Shown here: positions 1,804 to 56,164 of the stretch, one piece after another
Layout of the letters: every line of letters starts with the position of its first letter
Numbering within the stretch: the first letter of the stretch is position 1
Virus record (IMG/VR): IMGVR_UViG_3300032030_000057
Span: 1-64,000 of that record
Reading direction: 5' to 3' (one strand)
DNA length: 64,000 nucleotides
Origin: a virus
Lineage: Duplodnaviria; Caudoviricetes
Notes under the pieces: generated by a model
Seen by the model: the letters and a program-made list of their open reading frames with translations, nothing else
Database searches by the model: none
What the model was told of the DNA's origin: nothing
Made by a program: the position numbers and the translations under genes

Positions 1804-4800
1804 ATGCCAGACCCCACAGTAGTAGTAGCCCGTCTTGACAATAAAGAGTTGAAGGAATCAATCAACCAAATGGTTATTGACTTCGAAAACGGGCTGAATC
1901 GGATGAAGCAATCGGCAGATACAGCCGTTGCAGACCTTCAGAAGACGTTGAAGAAACTTAGCGATACAAAGGTAGACTCCAGCGGTTCAGCCGACGGAGG
2001 AAGCTCTAGACGCAAGAAATCCAACGACGAGGAAACGCAGTCAATCAAGAGCAAGACTGCTGCTGCCAAGGAGTTTACAGCTACACTTGACCAGCAGGCT
2101 CAGGCCGTGCAGAAGGCTATGGGTGGCTCAAGAAATGCTGACATTATTCAAACAATGCAGACACAACTTGAGTTAATGTTATCTCGCTTACGAGAGGCTC
2201 GTAGCCAATATTCTTCTTTTATAGAACTTGCTGCTCATGCAACCACTACTGGTGACAAGGGTCTCTTTCAGTTTGCCACAGAAAACGTTCATCGATACGA
2301 ACAAGAAGTCCGTAATCTTATTCCACAAATAAGGGGGTTGAGAAACGGTATTACCCAAATGGGTGATGTTCTTGCTCCTCAGGGACATGCTTTTGAAAAC
2401 TATGTAAAAAGCCTTATGCAAGCAAACCCAGAACTTGCCCTTATGAACAAGTTGTTTAAGACTGGGAATTGGGTATGGAGTGAGAGAAATGCTGTTTTAA
2501 CCCAAGCTACAGCTAATACGCAAAAGAATACGGCAGAAATAGAGAAACAAACTGCTGCTGAACAAAAGTATTCTGAGGCTGTACAAAATGCAGCACAAGC
2601 ACTTAGGTCTCAGTTTAATACTGGAAAAGCATCTTATATTGATGTAGGCGGAAAGGCAATATATGCTGACGAAAGCAAAGCTTCTATAGAGTACCAAATT
2701 AACCAACTTGTAAAAGAACGAGGGAAAGATTTTAACCTTCAACATGCAGTAGCACAAGCTATAGAACAGGATGAAAATCGCATAAGCGAAAATCTTCGTA
2801 AGCAAGTTGATGCTGAAAAACAAATAAATGAAGAAAAAACCAAAAGAGTAAAAACTTTTACTGTTGAGCTAGAATCTCTGAATACACTTAACGAAAAAGC
2901 AAAAAAGTTAAGGAGTATGCTTGCTGATATGACAAACACACAGTTGAGAGACCCAAAAAACGGTGGAGCACTTTCAAGAAGATTGAGAGAGATTGAAGCA
3001 CAAATAAAAAAAGTAAAACAAGAAATAGACCGCCCAACAAAAGAAGAAGTTTTTGGAATTAAACCAAAGACGCTTGACGACATGGCAAACAAGCTTCGAA
3101 TGCTTCAGTCATATAAGATGGGCATAAACCTAAACGCACCGCAAGCAGCAAACGAAATAAAACAGGTAGACGATGCTATCAACCGTCTAAAGAAGGACAT
3201 GGATAAATACATGTCAACAGGACGTGAGGTAAATTCTATGAACAATGCTCTTGCTCGTTCATTCAACTACATGAAGAATCGTCTGGCATTCTACTTTACT
3301 GTCGGTGCTTCTACACAGTTTGTAAAGAACCTGATTGATATCAGGTCTCAGTACGAGATGAACGAGCGTGCGCTTGGTATTCTTATCAATAGCGCAGAAA
3401 GAGGCTCTCAGATTTTCAAAGAGTTATCTAACATGGCTCTTGTGTCTCCATATACGCTTATCGAGCTGTCTACAGCAGCTAAACAACTTGTTGCTTACGA
3501 TATTGCTGCAAGGGATGTGGTTGACACAACACGTCGTTTGGCTGACATGACTGCTGCTGTTGGTATTCCTATTGAGCGTCTTACATACGCTCTGGGACAA
3601 ATAAAAGCATACGGGTATCTTAACGCACGCGATGCACGTATGTTCTCAAACGCAGGTATTCCTTTGGTCAAGGAGCTTGCAGACTATTATTCTCAGCTTG
3701 AAGGAAGAATGGTAAGTGTGGCAGATGTTTACGACAGGATTAAGAAAAAAGCTATTGACTATAATTCTGTCATGAATGTCATATCAAAAATGACCGACGA
3801 GGGCGGTAGGTTTTTTGACTTCCAAGCAAAGATGGCAGACACGTTAAAAGTAAAACTTGCCAATCTTACTCTTGCATGGAACAACATGCTTAACGATATA
3901 GGAAAAAGCGAACAGGGATTGTTAACTTGGACTATAGGAGCATTAAAAGAGGTTTTTCTTCAGTGGAAAAACATTAATAGAGTTGTTGAAGATTTGATAA
4001 TAATTTTTGGAGTTTTAAAATCTGTTCAGCTTGTTTACTACGGTGTTATGCTAGGAACCAGCAAAGCTATAACCGCACAAGCTGTACTTGGTAAAAAATT
4101 AACGTCAATTCTTAAAACACTTGGTGGTACAATGAACCAAGTTCTTACATCTGGAGCAACTTGGTGGGGTCTTCTTGGTGCTGCTGCAATTGGTGCTGCA
4201 ATATCAATTGTGCGCGGAAATGAAGCAATGAAAGAATTTAATAAATCTATAAGAGAAGACGCAAAAAACACATACAATGATGTTACAAAATTCTTAGAAC
4301 AATATAAAGAGCTAAAAAACAGCTTATATGATGTAGAAAAAAAGACAAGGTTTGTTCCTTATTCAGATGGATATGAAAAAGAAGAATCTTACGATGTTCT
4401 TGTTGGAAAAGACATAAAAAAAGAAGATGCTTTAAAAGCTTGGGCTGCTATACGTGAACAAATCGAACTTTCATCTCAAGCTAGCTCAGATTTTATAGGG
4501 AAACTCTTGTCAATAGAAAATACAAGCGAGCGTGTTCGTCAAGGATTTAAGGTTCTAGAAGATATACAAACTGTAACAGCAGCATTAAATGAGCTTGGTG
4601 ATGACGGAATTAAGGTGTCTCGCGAATGGTCAGAATGGTGGAATTTATGGACGTTACCTGACGGTGTTATAGGCAACCTGAAGGATGCTCATTTGTGGAT
4701 TTCAAAGATAACGGACGAGTTTGGTTCTTTGGAAAATGCAAGGAAAGTTGCCGCAACATCAACAACAGAAGAAGGCCTTCCCAATTTGTTCCAAAAAAGA

Positions 4801-17491: not shown

Positions 17492-17771
17492 AATGTAATT
17501 GTTTTCGTGAATTCGGCTGCAAATCTAAGCAAAATCTATTATAATCCGTATAAAACGAAAGCAATTTTAACTTCTCACGCGCAAAATTAACATCCTTTTA
17601 TAAATAGTATACTTATTACGTAATATGTATTCTTTACCATAAGAGTATACCAGTAATAATAGTATTCTTATTAATAAGTATACTCATTACACGCGCGTGC
17701 GTACGCGTATAGAACCAAAAATTCAAATACTATGACTGGGAATTATACCGCAAAATCACCAAATTGGCCGT

Positions 17772-17855
17772 TTTTAAGGCCGTAGGACGCGTTTTATGCC
17801 TCAGGTGGATAACTATAAGGCCCAAACAAAAATAAATGCTCTACGGGCTCTAAAA
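17772..17855. repeat. Imperfect cruciform with central GTGGATAAC (DnaA-box-like), copy 1
   Basis: Arms TTTTAAGGCCGTAGGACGCGTTTTA / TAAATGCTCTACGGGCTCTAAAA. Confidence 0.5.
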
Positions 17856-18129
17856 TGCGTTTTTTTTAAAATCGAAAATTTAAAAATTTAAAAATCAAAA
17901 ATTTGAGTGTAGGCACCATGCTCTTTGGCGTCGCGCACACCTCCCCCTCCCCTTATATGTTTTTGTGTTTTTGATAGGCTCAAAATATGTCTTTTTTCGC
18001 TCGTTTATATGAACGTTTGAGAAAGTAAAAATACGTTTTTTCGCTTTCCTTCGCTGATAGTGAAAAACGCGAAGACATAAACCAAACCACCAAACGACAA
18101 AAACGGGCTCAAAAGATTGCATTTGCATT

Positions 18130-18480
18130 TTGCCAAATTTGCCAATATTATATTATTTCATTCTTTATCTTATTTATATCTTATTTTTTAGTATTTATTT
18201 TATCCTGAATATTATATTAATTTTCTTTTATTCTTTTATTATCTCTATACTGATAATATTATATTTATTCTATCCTATAATATTAACAACCTATATATTA
18301 TAACAATCATAAAAAAAATAACAAAACAATATATACATATAGTATATAAAAAGAAAAGTATATAAAAGAAAAAGAATTGTATAAAAACCTTCAATAATTA
18401 ATTATATATAATAATGTACACGTATAATTTTTGCCTATTTTGTAGAATATTCTTTAAAAATCGATAAAATACGGCATTTA
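18130..18480. other. Extremely AT-rich non-coding tract between the divergent arms (origin or genome-end candidate)
   Basis: Almost only A/T, no ORF, located at the switch of transcription direction. Confidence 0.5.
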
Positions 18481-18512
18481 GTCTATATTTTGAGCCCAAA
18501 CGTATATTTTGT

Positions 18513-18543
18513 TTTGTAGTATTTAAATTTCGTCGTAACTTTG
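18513..18543 (+). promoter_or_regulatory. Bacteroidetes sigmaA promoter (rightward, early)
   Basis: TTTG-N19-TAACTTTG. Confidence 0.75.
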
Positions 18544-18576
18544 CACCAGAAAAATTAAAAAATAGTATTAACGAAA

Positions 18577-18596
18577 CAGACAGACAGACAGACAGA
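18577..18596 (+). repeat. (CAGA)5 simple sequence repeat
   Basis: CAGACAGACAGACAGACAGA. Confidence 0.9.
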
Positions 18597-18599
18597 CTT

Positions 18600-18945
18600 T
18601 TTCCGACCTGCTGCGAAATGCAGCGAAAAGGCAGGGGTTTAAATAGGAATGAAAACCCAGCAACAGAAGCAAAAAGCAACTACCTACAGTGTGGACCACA
18701 CCACCAGCAATGTCAAAGGCGTATTAACTTATCAAAATAGATAAGCGAGGCGAAAAGGCAGAAGGCAAGTAACACTAAATTCCACGGAATGCGGTGCGGA
18801 ATACTGAAAAGCAAAAGCGGTTACACCCAGTAACTATGGGGATGCAAAGTAAGTTAACTAAAACCTTCGGGGAAAGACAAACGAAATACTTTGCAAGGTA
18901 TTGCAAGGCAGCGAGATTATCTCAGCGAAGAAGGCAAAGAAATTT
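18600..18945 (+). ncRNA. Candidate structured non-coding RNA
   Basis: No convincing ORF; directly downstream of a promoter; many hairpins with GNRA-like/UUCG loops. Confidence 0.35.
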
Positions 18946-18962
18946 AATGTTTCACATGAAAC
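18946..18962 (+). repeat. parS-like site 1 (17-bp inverted repeat, left copy)
   Basis: AATGTTTCACATGAAAC; one central mismatch to TGTTTCACGTGAAACA. Confidence 0.7.
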
Positions 18963-19097
18963 CAACCAAATAACAAAACTTTTGCGAAATGCAAATTATA
19001 AGTTTTGTTTTATTTGCGTTTTTAATACTTTTCCAAAGTTACGAAACGAAAATAATGATTTGAAACAAATCTTTGGCGGATTTCTGGAGGAGGCTGA

Positions 19098-19115
19098 TGT
19101 TTCATGTGAAACATT
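19098..19115 (-). repeat. parS-like site 2 (17-bp inverted repeat, right copy)
   Basis: TGTTTCATGTGAAACATT; 19099-19115 is the exact reverse complement of site 1. Confidence 0.7.
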
Positions 19116-19218
19116 CTTTTGGTAAGGTAGGCAAATAATCGGTGTACCTGTAGCGAAAACAGGCTACCTACAATTTTTATTAATAAAATTTAGTATTAAT
19201 CTTTAAAAACTTACAATT

Positions 19219-19617
19219 ATGAAGAATTTTGATTTTATTGAGAGTGCAAATGTAGTGTTGAAGAATGTAGGCGCAGACTTGCGCGGTGGTAACAAGGAAT
19301 ACACAAGCATCAGCCGCGTATTGAAGGATATCCAGAGAAGGGATATGTTACGCGCTGGTTACGGCAAGGTATTCGAGGCATTAGGTTTGGAGGCTGGAGG
19401 CATTACGCCCGCAGATTTCTTTGCAGCTATACCAGAAGGAATGCACGGCACAGACAAGAAGGGCAACGACTTTGTCGGACTGTGGGGCTGGAAGGTGTTG
19501 GAGCGCGACGCAAACGGCAAGGTGACAAAGCGCGAAGCCGTATTGCGCAAGGTTACGTCGTGGAGCCCGAACAAGTTGTTCAAGGTCTGGGCTCAAGCAA
19601 ACGAGTTGAATAAGTAG
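19219..19617 (+). CDS. First early gene, hypothetical protein
   Basis: 132 aa, A-rich translation start, strong codon bias. Confidence 0.7.
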   Translation: MKNFDFIESANVVLKNVGADLRGGNKEYTSISRVLKDIQRRDMLRAGYGKVFEALGLEAGGITPADFFAAIPEGMHGTDKKGNDFVGLWGWKVLERDANGKVTKREAVLRKVTSWSPNKLFKVWAQANELNK

Positions 19618-19737
19618 TGTTGCAGCTCGACTATGCGAGGGTAAATAGGCGTTAGGCATAGTGCGTTATTAGGGCATGGTGTATCCTTTTGGGTGCATTA
19701 TGCCCTTTTAGGTCGTATTAATCTAAAAGCAGGAATT

Positions 19738-27935: not shown

Positions 27936-28127
27936 ATGAACAATGAAGAAATAAAGAAGGCTCTTGAAGCACTTGAAATCGCTGACAAAAAGCTATATAA
28001 AAGCGAGGAGTGCTCTTTATGTCTTTACAATGAAGTGTCAGATTACATTAAAGTTGCAAAAGATATATTAACGAGAGAACAGGATAACAGACGTTCACAC
28101 TCTGCGCCCACCGACGACAAACATTAA
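27936..28127 (+). CDS. Hypothetical protein
   Basis: 63-aa ORF. Confidence 0.5.
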   Translation: MNNEEIKKALEALEIADKKLYKSEECSLCLYNEVSDYIKVAKDILTREQDNRRSHSAPTDDKH

Positions 28128-28152
28128 TATTAACATTAAAACAACAACAATT

Positions 28153-28560
28153 ATGAACATCAAAATTGCAGCGAACGATTACGTTCAACCAAAAGAAGTG
28201 AGAGAAAACGTCGTACAGACATTGTGTAACATCATTATGGCCGACTACCTTGACAGGAACATGTCAATCACGGTTCACGTCAAGCACGCAGAGATGTATA
28301 TAGGAGTACACAAGGGTGGTGTGGATGCGACAAACATTCCCTACCTGATTACTCGCTCAACTCTGAACAGCAACTACGTATACACAAGGGTTAACTCCTG
28401 TGAGGTCGACGAGGCGTTCAAGGCCATCCAAGACGCAGGGTACTTCATTTATCTCGAACGAGACAAGAAGACAAAGGACTCTGTGTACACGTTCTCAAAG
28501 AAACCAGTACGCTATGGTGTGACCGCAAAGAATATTGAGTTTGATGTATTTATTGATTAA
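28153..28560 (+). CDS. Hypothetical protein
   Basis: 135-aa ORF. Confidence 0.65.
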   Translation: MNIKIAANDYVQPKEVRENVVQTLCNIIMADYLDRNMSITVHVKHAEMYIGVHKGGVDATNIPYLITRSTLNSNYVYTRVNSCEVDEAFKAIQDAGYFIYLERDKKTKDSVYTFSKKPVRYGVTAKNIEFDVFID

Positions 28561-30728: not shown

Positions 30729-31538
30729 ATGAGTGTTAAAAAATTCGTCGGATGGAGGCGCGTCAGTACAGCGAAACAACGCGGCTCACACTTAGGATTG
30801 GAGGCTCAGAAGTCTATTATTGATTTCTTTGTCGAAAAAGAGAAAGGCGAACTGATTGCAGACTATGAGGAATGTCATAGCGGAACTGACCTTGCAGGTT
30901 GTACAGAACTAAAGAAAGCAAAGGAACACTGCAAGAAAACAGGCGCAACCCTAATCATCGCAAAGACTGACAGATGCCGTGATACAATCGAGGCTCTTCA
31001 GTTGTACGAGGAAATGAATGGGCGTATTTATTTCTGCGATTTGCCTCACACAGACAAGTTTACTTTAACCTTGTTCTTCAGCCTTGCAGAGCGAGAGGCC
31101 ATGATTGTAAGTCTAAGAACAAAGCAGGCACTCGCAGCATTAAAGGCTCGTGGAGATGTAAAGCTTGGAGCATCTAACCAAAAGTATCGCGAGACGTACG
31201 ACAACAAGTCCGACGAAGAAAAGGTCTGTATTGCCCAGAAAAGAGGCAGGACTAAGACAGGAAACTATATCGCATCAAGAGATGTGCAGGCGTTCATCAA
31301 GGCTCTGCGTGCAACGTTTACAGAGGCAACGCAAGGAGAACCTACCGAATGGACTTGGAACTGCATCAACACCAAGAACGGGCCACGTCAGCGTGTCCTC
31401 GGAATGATGAAGAACTTCCAAGACCTAGACGGAACTTTGTTCAGAGGGTGGAATTTCACCGACCTGAACTCCACTAAGCTGCAGGTGAAACTTGCAAATC
31501 AGATTTCATGCCTGAGGCGTAGTGTAAAAGCATTATAA
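30729..31538 (+). CDS. Serine recombinase (resolvase/invertase family)
   Basis: RVSTAKQ (catalytic Ser)..LEAQ..SGT..LIIAKTDR..AERE...S.RTK.AL.ALKARG.KLG. Confidence 0.9.
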   Translation: MSVKKFVGWRRVSTAKQRGSHLGLEAQKSIIDFFVEKEKGELIADYEECHSGTDLAGCTELKKAKEHCKKTGATLIIAKTDRCRDTIEALQLYEEMNGRIYFCDLPHTDKFTLTLFFSLAEREAMIVSLRTKQALAALKARGDVKLGASNQKYRETYDNKSDEEKVCIAQKRGRTKTGNYIASRDVQAFIKALRATFTEATQGEPTEWTWNCINTKNGPRQRVLGMMKNFQDLDGTLFRGWNFTDLNSTKLQVKLANQISCLRRSVKAL

Positions 31539-55722: not shown

Positions 55723-56054
55723 AGTTTTTTTTCTTTTGTTTTGTTGTTAAAAAAGATGTTAGTTATCTCAAGTGTAACGTTACGCTGGCAAAGATAATGT
55801 GTTTTTCTGTTATGTTAAACGCGTACTCAATTAAGTCCGTAGCAATAATGAAATACGGACAGCACAAAACAAAAGAACGCGTCACAATGGCGTACTTTCA
55901 CAAGTCCAAAGTGAAAGTAAAATCCCCCCATAAACAAAGGCTTTTCCCCATATAATTTTTTATAAAGGGATATTTTTCTGCGATATTAAAAATCGTATCT
56001 ACTTGATTATCAATACGTTATATTATTATTTACTAACTAAAATTTTTCAAAACT

Positions 56055-56120
56055 ATGTCACCAAAGATTCGTTACCGCCTTGTGTTTGAATACGCAAAAA
56101 AAGGAATCACTAATAAATGA
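56055..56120 (+). pseudogene. Relic 5' end of a Bacteroidales tyrosine integrase
   Basis: MSPKIRYRLVF EYAKKGITNK*; the first 11 residues resemble the M.EKIRYRLVFNR N-terminus of Arm-DNA-bind_5 integrases as recalled; truncated by a terminator hairpin. Confidence 0.5.
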
Positions 56121-56130
56121 TTCCCTTTTT
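56097..56130. terminator. Terminator at the end of the tail-fibre operon
   Basis: AAAAGGAATCA-CTAATAAA-TGATTCCCTTTT. Confidence 0.7.
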
Positions 56131-56164
56131 CTTATTATGAAAATTTGTGGATTTCCACTTTAAT

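Follow-up and report, generated by a model that had tools for sequence, protein, structure and literature searches.

Two CA/TG-centred parS-type sites in the early leader of a ParB-less tailed phage suggest borrowing of a Bacteroidales ParB

Among the described systems that come closest to the locus analysed here is phage phi29 which, as summarised in PMC2731898, carries five parS sites that are bound by host Spo0J and direct the phage genome into the forespore (Meijer et al. 2005, via PMC2731898). Going by that summary, phi29 is the only experimentally supported precedent that we verified for the borrowing of a host ParB by a phage. Our locus resembles phi29 (and Nf), as portrayed there, in that a phage without ParB has several host-type parS sites, through which in phi29 the host partition protein moves the genome. 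The host of phi29 is a sporulating Firmicute, with entrapment in the spore as the known pay-off, and phi29 itself is a podophage with a protein-primed genome of 19 kb, whereas here we have a tailed phage of ~80 kb with a probable Bacteroidales host. It also differs from phi29 in having two sites, placed in an early leader and both CA/TG-centred, for which ParB binding and its benefit are predicted from sequence. Bacteroidales do not sporulate, so that the pay-off must be a different one. In B. subtilis, Lin and Grossman reportedly found in 1998 that host Spo0J/Soj, acting in trans, stabilise a plasmid with a chromosomal parS; the likeness is that a bare chromosomal parS is enough for a foreign replicon to be coupled to host partitioning, but theirs was an engineered laboratory plasmid and ours is a natural phage.

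The phage-plasmids P1 (ParAB-parS) and N15 (SopAB) are comparable for the stable inheritance of an unintegrated genome that we propose, but have their own ParA and ParB and private centromeres (PMC7969092), whereas this phage encodes neither protein and uses the host sequence. Chromosomal ParABS systems, in which ParB-CTP clamps load at TGTTNCACGTGAAACA near oriC, share with the phage sites the 16-bp palindrome family, the tolerated variants and the origin-like neighbourhood; in Bacteroidales they comprise 1-3 sites, gidA-linked in the two loci examined. In contrast to these, the phage sites have no cognate parAB on their replicon, belong to a virus and lie inside a transcribed leader.

The DNA analysed here (the window, 64 kb) is the first part of an IMG/VR record of 79,508 bp with a CheckV completeness of 100%. 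A 2205-aa tape-measure protein, tail-fibre-like proteins, a primase-helicase, an SSB, a pyrophosphatase and a sliding-clamp-like processivity factor identify it as a tailed phage. A megablast search of 20 kb of the phage against phages gave zero matches; among cultured relatives, Bacteroides phage C3_41T2LP (host B. uniformis) is the nearest, with 42% identity over 97% of the primase-helicase. Both parS-type sites are within a 1.7-kb non-coding gap (17492-19218) flanked by a leftward replication module and by rightward early genes. The features of this region are as follows.

18130-18420, no strand: very AT-rich block that contains short repeats, separates divergent transcription units and adjoins the replication genes; candidate origin or DNA-unwinding region
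18513-18543, plus strand: Bacteroidetes-type early promoter, TTTG-N19-TAACTTTG; motif enriched genome-wide, same layout in relatives L333 and L334
18946-19115, no strand: whole two-site unit; two 17-nt arms, exact reverse complements, with 136 nt between them
18948-18963, no strand: parS-type site 1, TGTTTCACATGAAACC; centre CA, last base C, rest of the core GTTTCA-CA-TGAAAC intact
19098-19113, no strand: parS-type site 2, TGTTTCATGTGAAACA; with flanks ATGTTTCA-TG-TGAAACAT, the same 18-mer as in arrays adjoining parAB operons
19147-19163, plus strand: conserved leader hairpin, CCTGT-AGCGAAA-ACAGG; counterpart in relative L332 CCTGC-AGAGAAA-GCAGG, a compensatory change
19219-19617, plus strand: first early gene, with a 132-aa product that belongs to no Pfam or PHROG family; marker of the clade with parS-type sites in the leader

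The two sites are located exactly where the original prediction had put them, and their starts are 150 bp apart as it had said. It had described them as canonical except for one central base, and in site 1 also the last base, and the counts agree: compared with TGTTTCACGTGAAACA, site 1 has 2 mismatches (centre and last base, 14/16) and site 2 has 1 (centre, 15/16). The same 15/16 and 14/16 result from comparison with the 16-bp palindrome of chromosomal parS, the 14-bp core being intact save for its centre. The arms of the unit, AATGTTTCACATGAAAC (18946-18962) and GTTTCATGTGAAACATT (19099-19115), form the longest perfect inverted repeat of the genome among those with arms within 6 kb of each other. 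Beyond these two, the 79.5-kb record has no parS-like sites with up to 2 mismatches. In 400 first-order Markov simulations of a 79.5-kb genome, such sites averaged 0.078 per genome, with at least one in 29/400 and at least two in 2/400 simulations.

The sites had also been placed beside a putative origin. What holds is that they are in a non-coding early region adjoining an AT-rich, origin-like block; the origin itself is a candidate suggested by the sequence features there, namely a repeat block at 0.5-0.8 kb from the sites, a strand switch, a GC-skew minimum and adjacent replication genes. An equivalent of the AT-rich block is found upstream of the leader in three relatives (L332-L334). Beside the start of the leftward replication operon, at 17601-17690, we observed repeated and inverted copies of AGTATACTTATTA and TAATAAGTATACT with an operator-like appearance.

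The Bacteroidetes promoter motif occurs 14 times in the genome, compared with 2.3+-1.4 times in shuffles, and its copy at 18513-18543 places both sites inside a leader of ~670 nt of the first rightward transcript. The local order is thus AT-rich block, promoter, purine-rich leader with hairpins and both sites, 132-aa gene and Pistol ribozyme, and the sites are origin-proximal and at the same time within the first early transcript. The series AT-rich block, promoter, long leader and gene is also present in L333 and L334; L332 has the block and no strict promoter match. The compensatory change in the hairpin at 19147-19163 indicates that the leader is also a structured RNA. Along the plus strand (18550-19218) it shows serial hairpins with GNRA- or UUCG-type loops, and at some aligned leader positions one phage has a parS palindrome and another an ordinary tetraloop hairpin. 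An (ACAG)n microsatellite of ~5.5 units (18576-18597) was seen just downstream of the early promoter.

For the 132-aa gene, 127 homologues were found in public assemblies. The AlphaFold model of its protein is confident (pLDDT 86.9, pTM 0.80), and neither Foldseek (best E about 1) nor VIA-align (best Z 3.1) matched it to the PDB; no DNA-binding fold was recognised in these comparisons, and judging by the model it may be a new small fold.

The original prediction had seen no parA or parB in the 64 kb, and this is true for the complete 79,508-bp record too: a six-frame search with PF02195 gave no match even at E <= 1, and our own ParA and ParB HMMs, built from the proteins of fetched parAB loci and run without filters (--max), reached a best E of 0.09. 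As cognate parAB is absent from the replicon, the sites are 'orphan', i.e. host-type parS on a ParB-less genome whose phage nature follows from the tape-measure, tail-fibre matches, primase-helicase and CheckV estimate. A check of the remaining genome for parAB or an integrase, which had been proposed, found neither ParA/ParB nor a tyrosine integrase (PF00589, six frames, no match at E <= 1). The dead integrase that had been read at 56055 was not recovered either: PF00589 does not match, 55750-56164 lacks a long frame, and neither Pfam nor PHROG gave a match for the 241-aa ORF next to it. There is thus no evidence for the predicted prophage that 'abandoned integration', of which we found no integrase trace, and its persistence as a plasmid is putative. 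The serine resolvase reported at 30729 is real (30729-31538; Resolvase domain, PHROG 'DNA invertase'), but its proposed connection with the sites did not hold, since G001 and G002, two complete relatives without any parS-like site, also encode homologues of it. The gene content is therefore not that of a P1- or N15-like phage-plasmid, comprising neither ParA/ParB nor a tyrosine integrase and only a small, family-wide serine recombinase.

Both sites deviate from the canonical sequence at the centre, which raises the question of whether the CA/TG centre is compatible with parS function. In the 243 loci among the matches listed, the centre of GTTTCA-NN-TGAAAC was CG 108 times, CA/TG 329 times (an ascertained class) and TA twice, and none had any of the other 12 dinucleotides. 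CA copies occur within otherwise regular CG arrays, with seven CG and one CA at 46-bp spacing in L243 and eight CG and one CA in L282. Furthermore, arrays of CA-only sites directly adjoin parA and a full-length ParB (ParB_N+HTH_ParB+ParB_C) in four loci, in one of which (L083) the array lies between parA and parB. These CA/TG-only centromere arrays, with 5-9 copies by parA-parB, are as follows.

L083, 1785-2395: CA/TG-only array
L088, 5610-6097: CA/TG-only array
L234, 312-1013: CA/TG-only array
L278, 2305-2782: CA/TG-only array

In the recognition-helix region, the ParBs by CA-only arrays look the same as the ParB by a CG array and are canonical-looking. A scan of metagenome contigs for the repeat pair returned six unrelated contigs, all of them parABS loci, with the 18-mer ATGTTTCA-CA-TGAAACAT clustered in three to nine copies, and the bacterial matches listed for the single 18-mer cover many phyla. 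The copies inside CG arrays and the CA-only arrays beside parAB argue that sequences with a CA/TG centre work as parS and are not broken sites, and the variant is also found at a gidA-linked chromosomal position (in G021, see below), so that it has a place in bona fide centromeres. Judged by these genomic contexts, the CA/TG-centred 16-mer is a real, widespread natural parS variant. A literature search for the CA-centred sequence, for host ParB in phages and for phage C3_41T2LP found no reports, and base-by-base mutagenesis of the parS centre is absent from Tran et al. 2018. On a practical matter, parS searches that allow a CA/TG centre would find centromeres, including phage-borne ones, that are missed by the strict consensus. 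When the flanks of the phage sites were compared with those of all fetched parS loci, we saw no similarity beyond the motif and thus no sign of recent capture.

The over-represented promoter motif and the infection of Bacteroides by the nearest cultured relative point to a Bacteroidota host, and we infer a host at the level of the order Bacteroidales. A DNA search for the host in 301 genomes of the family of G004 gave short uninformative matches only. All five Bacteroidales genomes tested encode ParB (ParB_N), and 52 of the 81 sampled contain TGTTTCAYRTGAAACA with at most 1 mismatch, usually in one to three copies. Two perfect parS sites flank gidA/mnmG in G077 (L340, G077:C14, 1669-3586), and in G021 (L339, G021:C3, 1708-3611) the order is gidA, parS (CG), uvrC and parS (CA-centred); the two sites are ~1.9 kb apart in both genomes, with parB on another contig. 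Exact CA-centred sites are also present in G012 and G048, and in the Prevotellaceae genome G004 they are the sole parS-like sites. The parS variants of Bacteroidales chromosomes include CA-centred sites, sites with C at position 5 and sites altered at position 1 or 16, and these are the variants that the phages show. At order level, the host lineage thus has ParB together with the same parS. Independently, ParABS has been described in Bacteroides caecimuris and Muribaculum intestinale, with parS clustering at the origin and no recognisable condensin in these two Bacteroidetes (PMC10197239). This weakens one half of the original prediction that host ParB and SMC are recruited: ParB borrowing is the best reading (see below), but the SMC part is doubtful.

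Leaders were compared among L332-L334, with the closer relatives behind P0002-P0120 outside this comparison. These three loci with the 132-aa gene came from a profile search of viral contigs, in which a single-protein search had zero matches. L332 (73% identity in the 132-aa gene) has three sites, two copies of TGTTCCACGTGGAACA and one of TGTTTCACGTGAAACG, that lie 190-390 nt upstream of this gene; in L334 (46% identity) a single leader site, CGTTTCACGTGAAACA, precedes the gene by 115 nt, and the complete record of L333 (52% identity) has no site. ParB is absent from the records of all three. Within ~900 kb of related phage DNA, the degenerate core GTTYCAYRTGRAAC occurs only in the homologous leaders of L332 and L334. 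The L334 record (G100) holds a further core site, GTTCCACATGGAAC, 46 kb from the leader. All six leader sites in the three site-bearing phages match TGTTNCAYRTGNAACA, with variation confined to positions that are variable in bacterial parS, and Bacteroidales chromosomes too contain the variants of L332 and L334. In the leader alignment, the second parS site of L332 is the counterpart of site 1, and the remaining sites have no positional match; the third site of L332 aligns with AAGTTACGAAAC at 19034-19050, which may be what is left of a decayed parS and which overlaps a TAACTTTG -7 box on the minus strand.

From these alignments, the sites appear to turn over, while the leader of site-bearing phages keeps one to three of them. 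Retention of the position with different variants in homologous leaders (three sites in L332, one in L334) argues for selection, and such turnover is what selection for ParB binding would predict; it seems hard to square with chance, with an invertible segment or with a long-range RNA helix. Sites are missing from the complete relative G099 (the L333 record), which has the 132-aa gene, from G001 and G002 (complete; found through a 600-aa early gene, 60-65% identity) and from C3_41T2LP, indicating that the trait is patchy and dispensable. No sites were seen within 5 kb of the pyrophosphatase gene in 80 more distant relatives.

Given a phage without ParA/ParB that has parS-family sites by an origin-like block, the best reading is the borrowing of host ParB. 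We assign a probability of roughly 0.55 to the sites being genuine chromosomal-type parS of the CA/TG variant that load host ParB, with segregation or positioning of an episome as their most likely use. Host ParB-CTP clamps would load at the two phage sites and a partition complex would form on the phage DNA, the phage contributing the cis element only and the Bacteroidales host ParB and probably ParA. Located between early promoter and first early gene, and adjoining the AT-rich origin-like block and the replication module, the complex could segregate or position the unintegrated phage genome, for example in a non-lytic carrier state, comparable to phi29 with host Spo0J; spreading of ParB across the early leader may also damp early transcription. 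Counting against this reading, there are only two sites, whereas plasmid centromeres often have more, and they lie in a transcribed, structured leader.

Host ParB might also bind for a pay-off other than partition, either as a brake on the rightward early operon or through titration by phage copies that disturbs host segregation. We regard this as credible, if unlikely. In all three site-bearing phages the leader sites follow the early promoter region and precede the first gene, and silencing near parS is established for the ParB-family proteins P1 ParB and KorB; titration would be helped by the 1-3 sites of Bacteroidales chromosomes, which a replicating phage would outnumber. However, a purely promoter-proximal role does not explain the distant second site of G100, and chromosomal parS is often in transcribed DNA without silencing. 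It is improbable that the sites act as RNA, through pairing of the arms into a 17-bp helix or through local hairpins in the leader, with an incidental likeness to parS. When 18930-19130 is folded as RNA both arms do pair (MFE -49.2 kcal/mol, z = -4.0), a z-score that is, however, given by construction from the inverted repeat, and the single leader site of L334 makes a long-range helix impossible. The leader hairpins are conserved with covariation, and unrelated tetraloop hairpins stand in the window or L333 where L332 has parS palindromes, both of which would suit an RNA role; yet a hairpin need not match parS, as all six leader sites do. An operator function for an unrecognised phage DNA-binding protein, for instance an autoregulating 132-aa product, we likewise consider improbable. 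Palindromes ahead of the first early gene are arranged as in classic operators and the sites are found only in phages with this gene, but G099 has the gene and no site, the protein matches no Pfam, PHROG or solved structure (with the low VIA Z given above), and the variants are exactly those of bacterial chromosomal parS, a sequence that host ParB is known to read.

A non-functional relic or a chance match, such as a scrap of host DNA, is very improbable in our view: several relatives do without sites and about 7% of simulated genomes contain one with at most 2 mismatches, but here two copies share 17 identical bases, two diverged relatives also have sites in the homologous leader, with none elsewhere in the ~900 kb of related DNA, and the flanks of the phage sites resemble neither bacterial nor other loci beyond the motif. 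The Bacteroides invertible promoters with an Mpi-type serine invertase offer another comparison, as they too have a short perfect inverted repeat around a segment of ~140 bp with a promoter-like box, and there is a serine recombinase in this genome. The sites would then be crossover sites at which the recombinase (30729-31538) flips the 136-bp segment with its leftward TAACTTTG -7 box, present on the minus strand at 19041. Each site has dyad symmetry around a non-palindromic CA/TG core, the pair is inverted and outranks every other perfect inverted repeat of the genome, and the recombinase has its match to PHROG 'DNA invertase'. In contrast to Mpi-type promoters, the repeat here is the parS sequence, and a pair of parS sites will always form an inverted repeat; the same 18-mer also occurs in mixed orientation in arrays of up to 9 copies beside parAB operons. 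Moreover, neither the single site of L334 nor the three of L332 with palindromic CG cores defines an invertible segment, no relative keeps a pair, and G001 and G002 have recombinase homologues without any such repeat. We rejected the inverton on the grounds of the parAB-linked arrays, the site pattern in relatives and the recombinase without repeat, and consider it very improbable. An exact scan of viral contigs for the inverted-repeat pair had no match, and no near-identical contig was among the matches of the viral or metagenome scans.

Returning to the loading of host ParB, we tentatively suggest an extension, which on balance we consider doubtful, to a clade-wide switch coupled to the host. 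ParB at the leader sites would act on partition of the unintegrated genome and at the same time throttle transcription of the early genes, which would give a heritable carrier state to integrase-less, virulent-looking phages; the variant, CA-centred here and CG-centred or with a C at position 5 in relatives, would track the parS of the host and thereby mark it. The sites bear on the question of how abundant integrase-less gut phages of Bacteroidales can coexist with their hosts for years, for which a cis-acting host centromere on a phage would be a concrete and deletable element. Segregation or silencing of the phage genome by host ParB would, if true, explain a carrier state in a non-sporulating host by simple means and extend the phi29/Spo0J paradigm beyond Firmicutes.

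Among the matches listed for the 18-mer, ParB was encoded within the fetched stretch in 2/117 viral loci and ParA in 0/117, compared with 38/120 bacterial loci by the same measure. Three complete or near-complete phage records (G095, G096, G097) have such sites and no ParB.

Some further observations concern the neighbouring sequence. In Rfam, no family matched the leader, and the only match was the Pistol self-cleaving ribozyme (RF02679) directly after the 132-aa gene, in the window at 19625-19717 (plus strand) and in L333 at 3424-3508 (plus strand), with 44.5 and 48.8 bits; a 40-nt match to it is present in the Bacteroidaceae genome G396. Upstream of ORF 28153-28560, a stretch of 30-50 nt (28121-28164) has 84-97% identity to several sampled genomes of the family of G004 and could represent protospacers or else a promoter or leader element in common. 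Lastly, five viral contigs of 12-16 kb that are 42-80% complete (L109, L143, L176, L205, L182) contain parS pairs or triplets at ~26-bp spacing with CG and CA centres and no ParB_N, and look like phi29-like gut phages that may use the same trick; the contigs of L176 and L205 have inverted terminal repeats.
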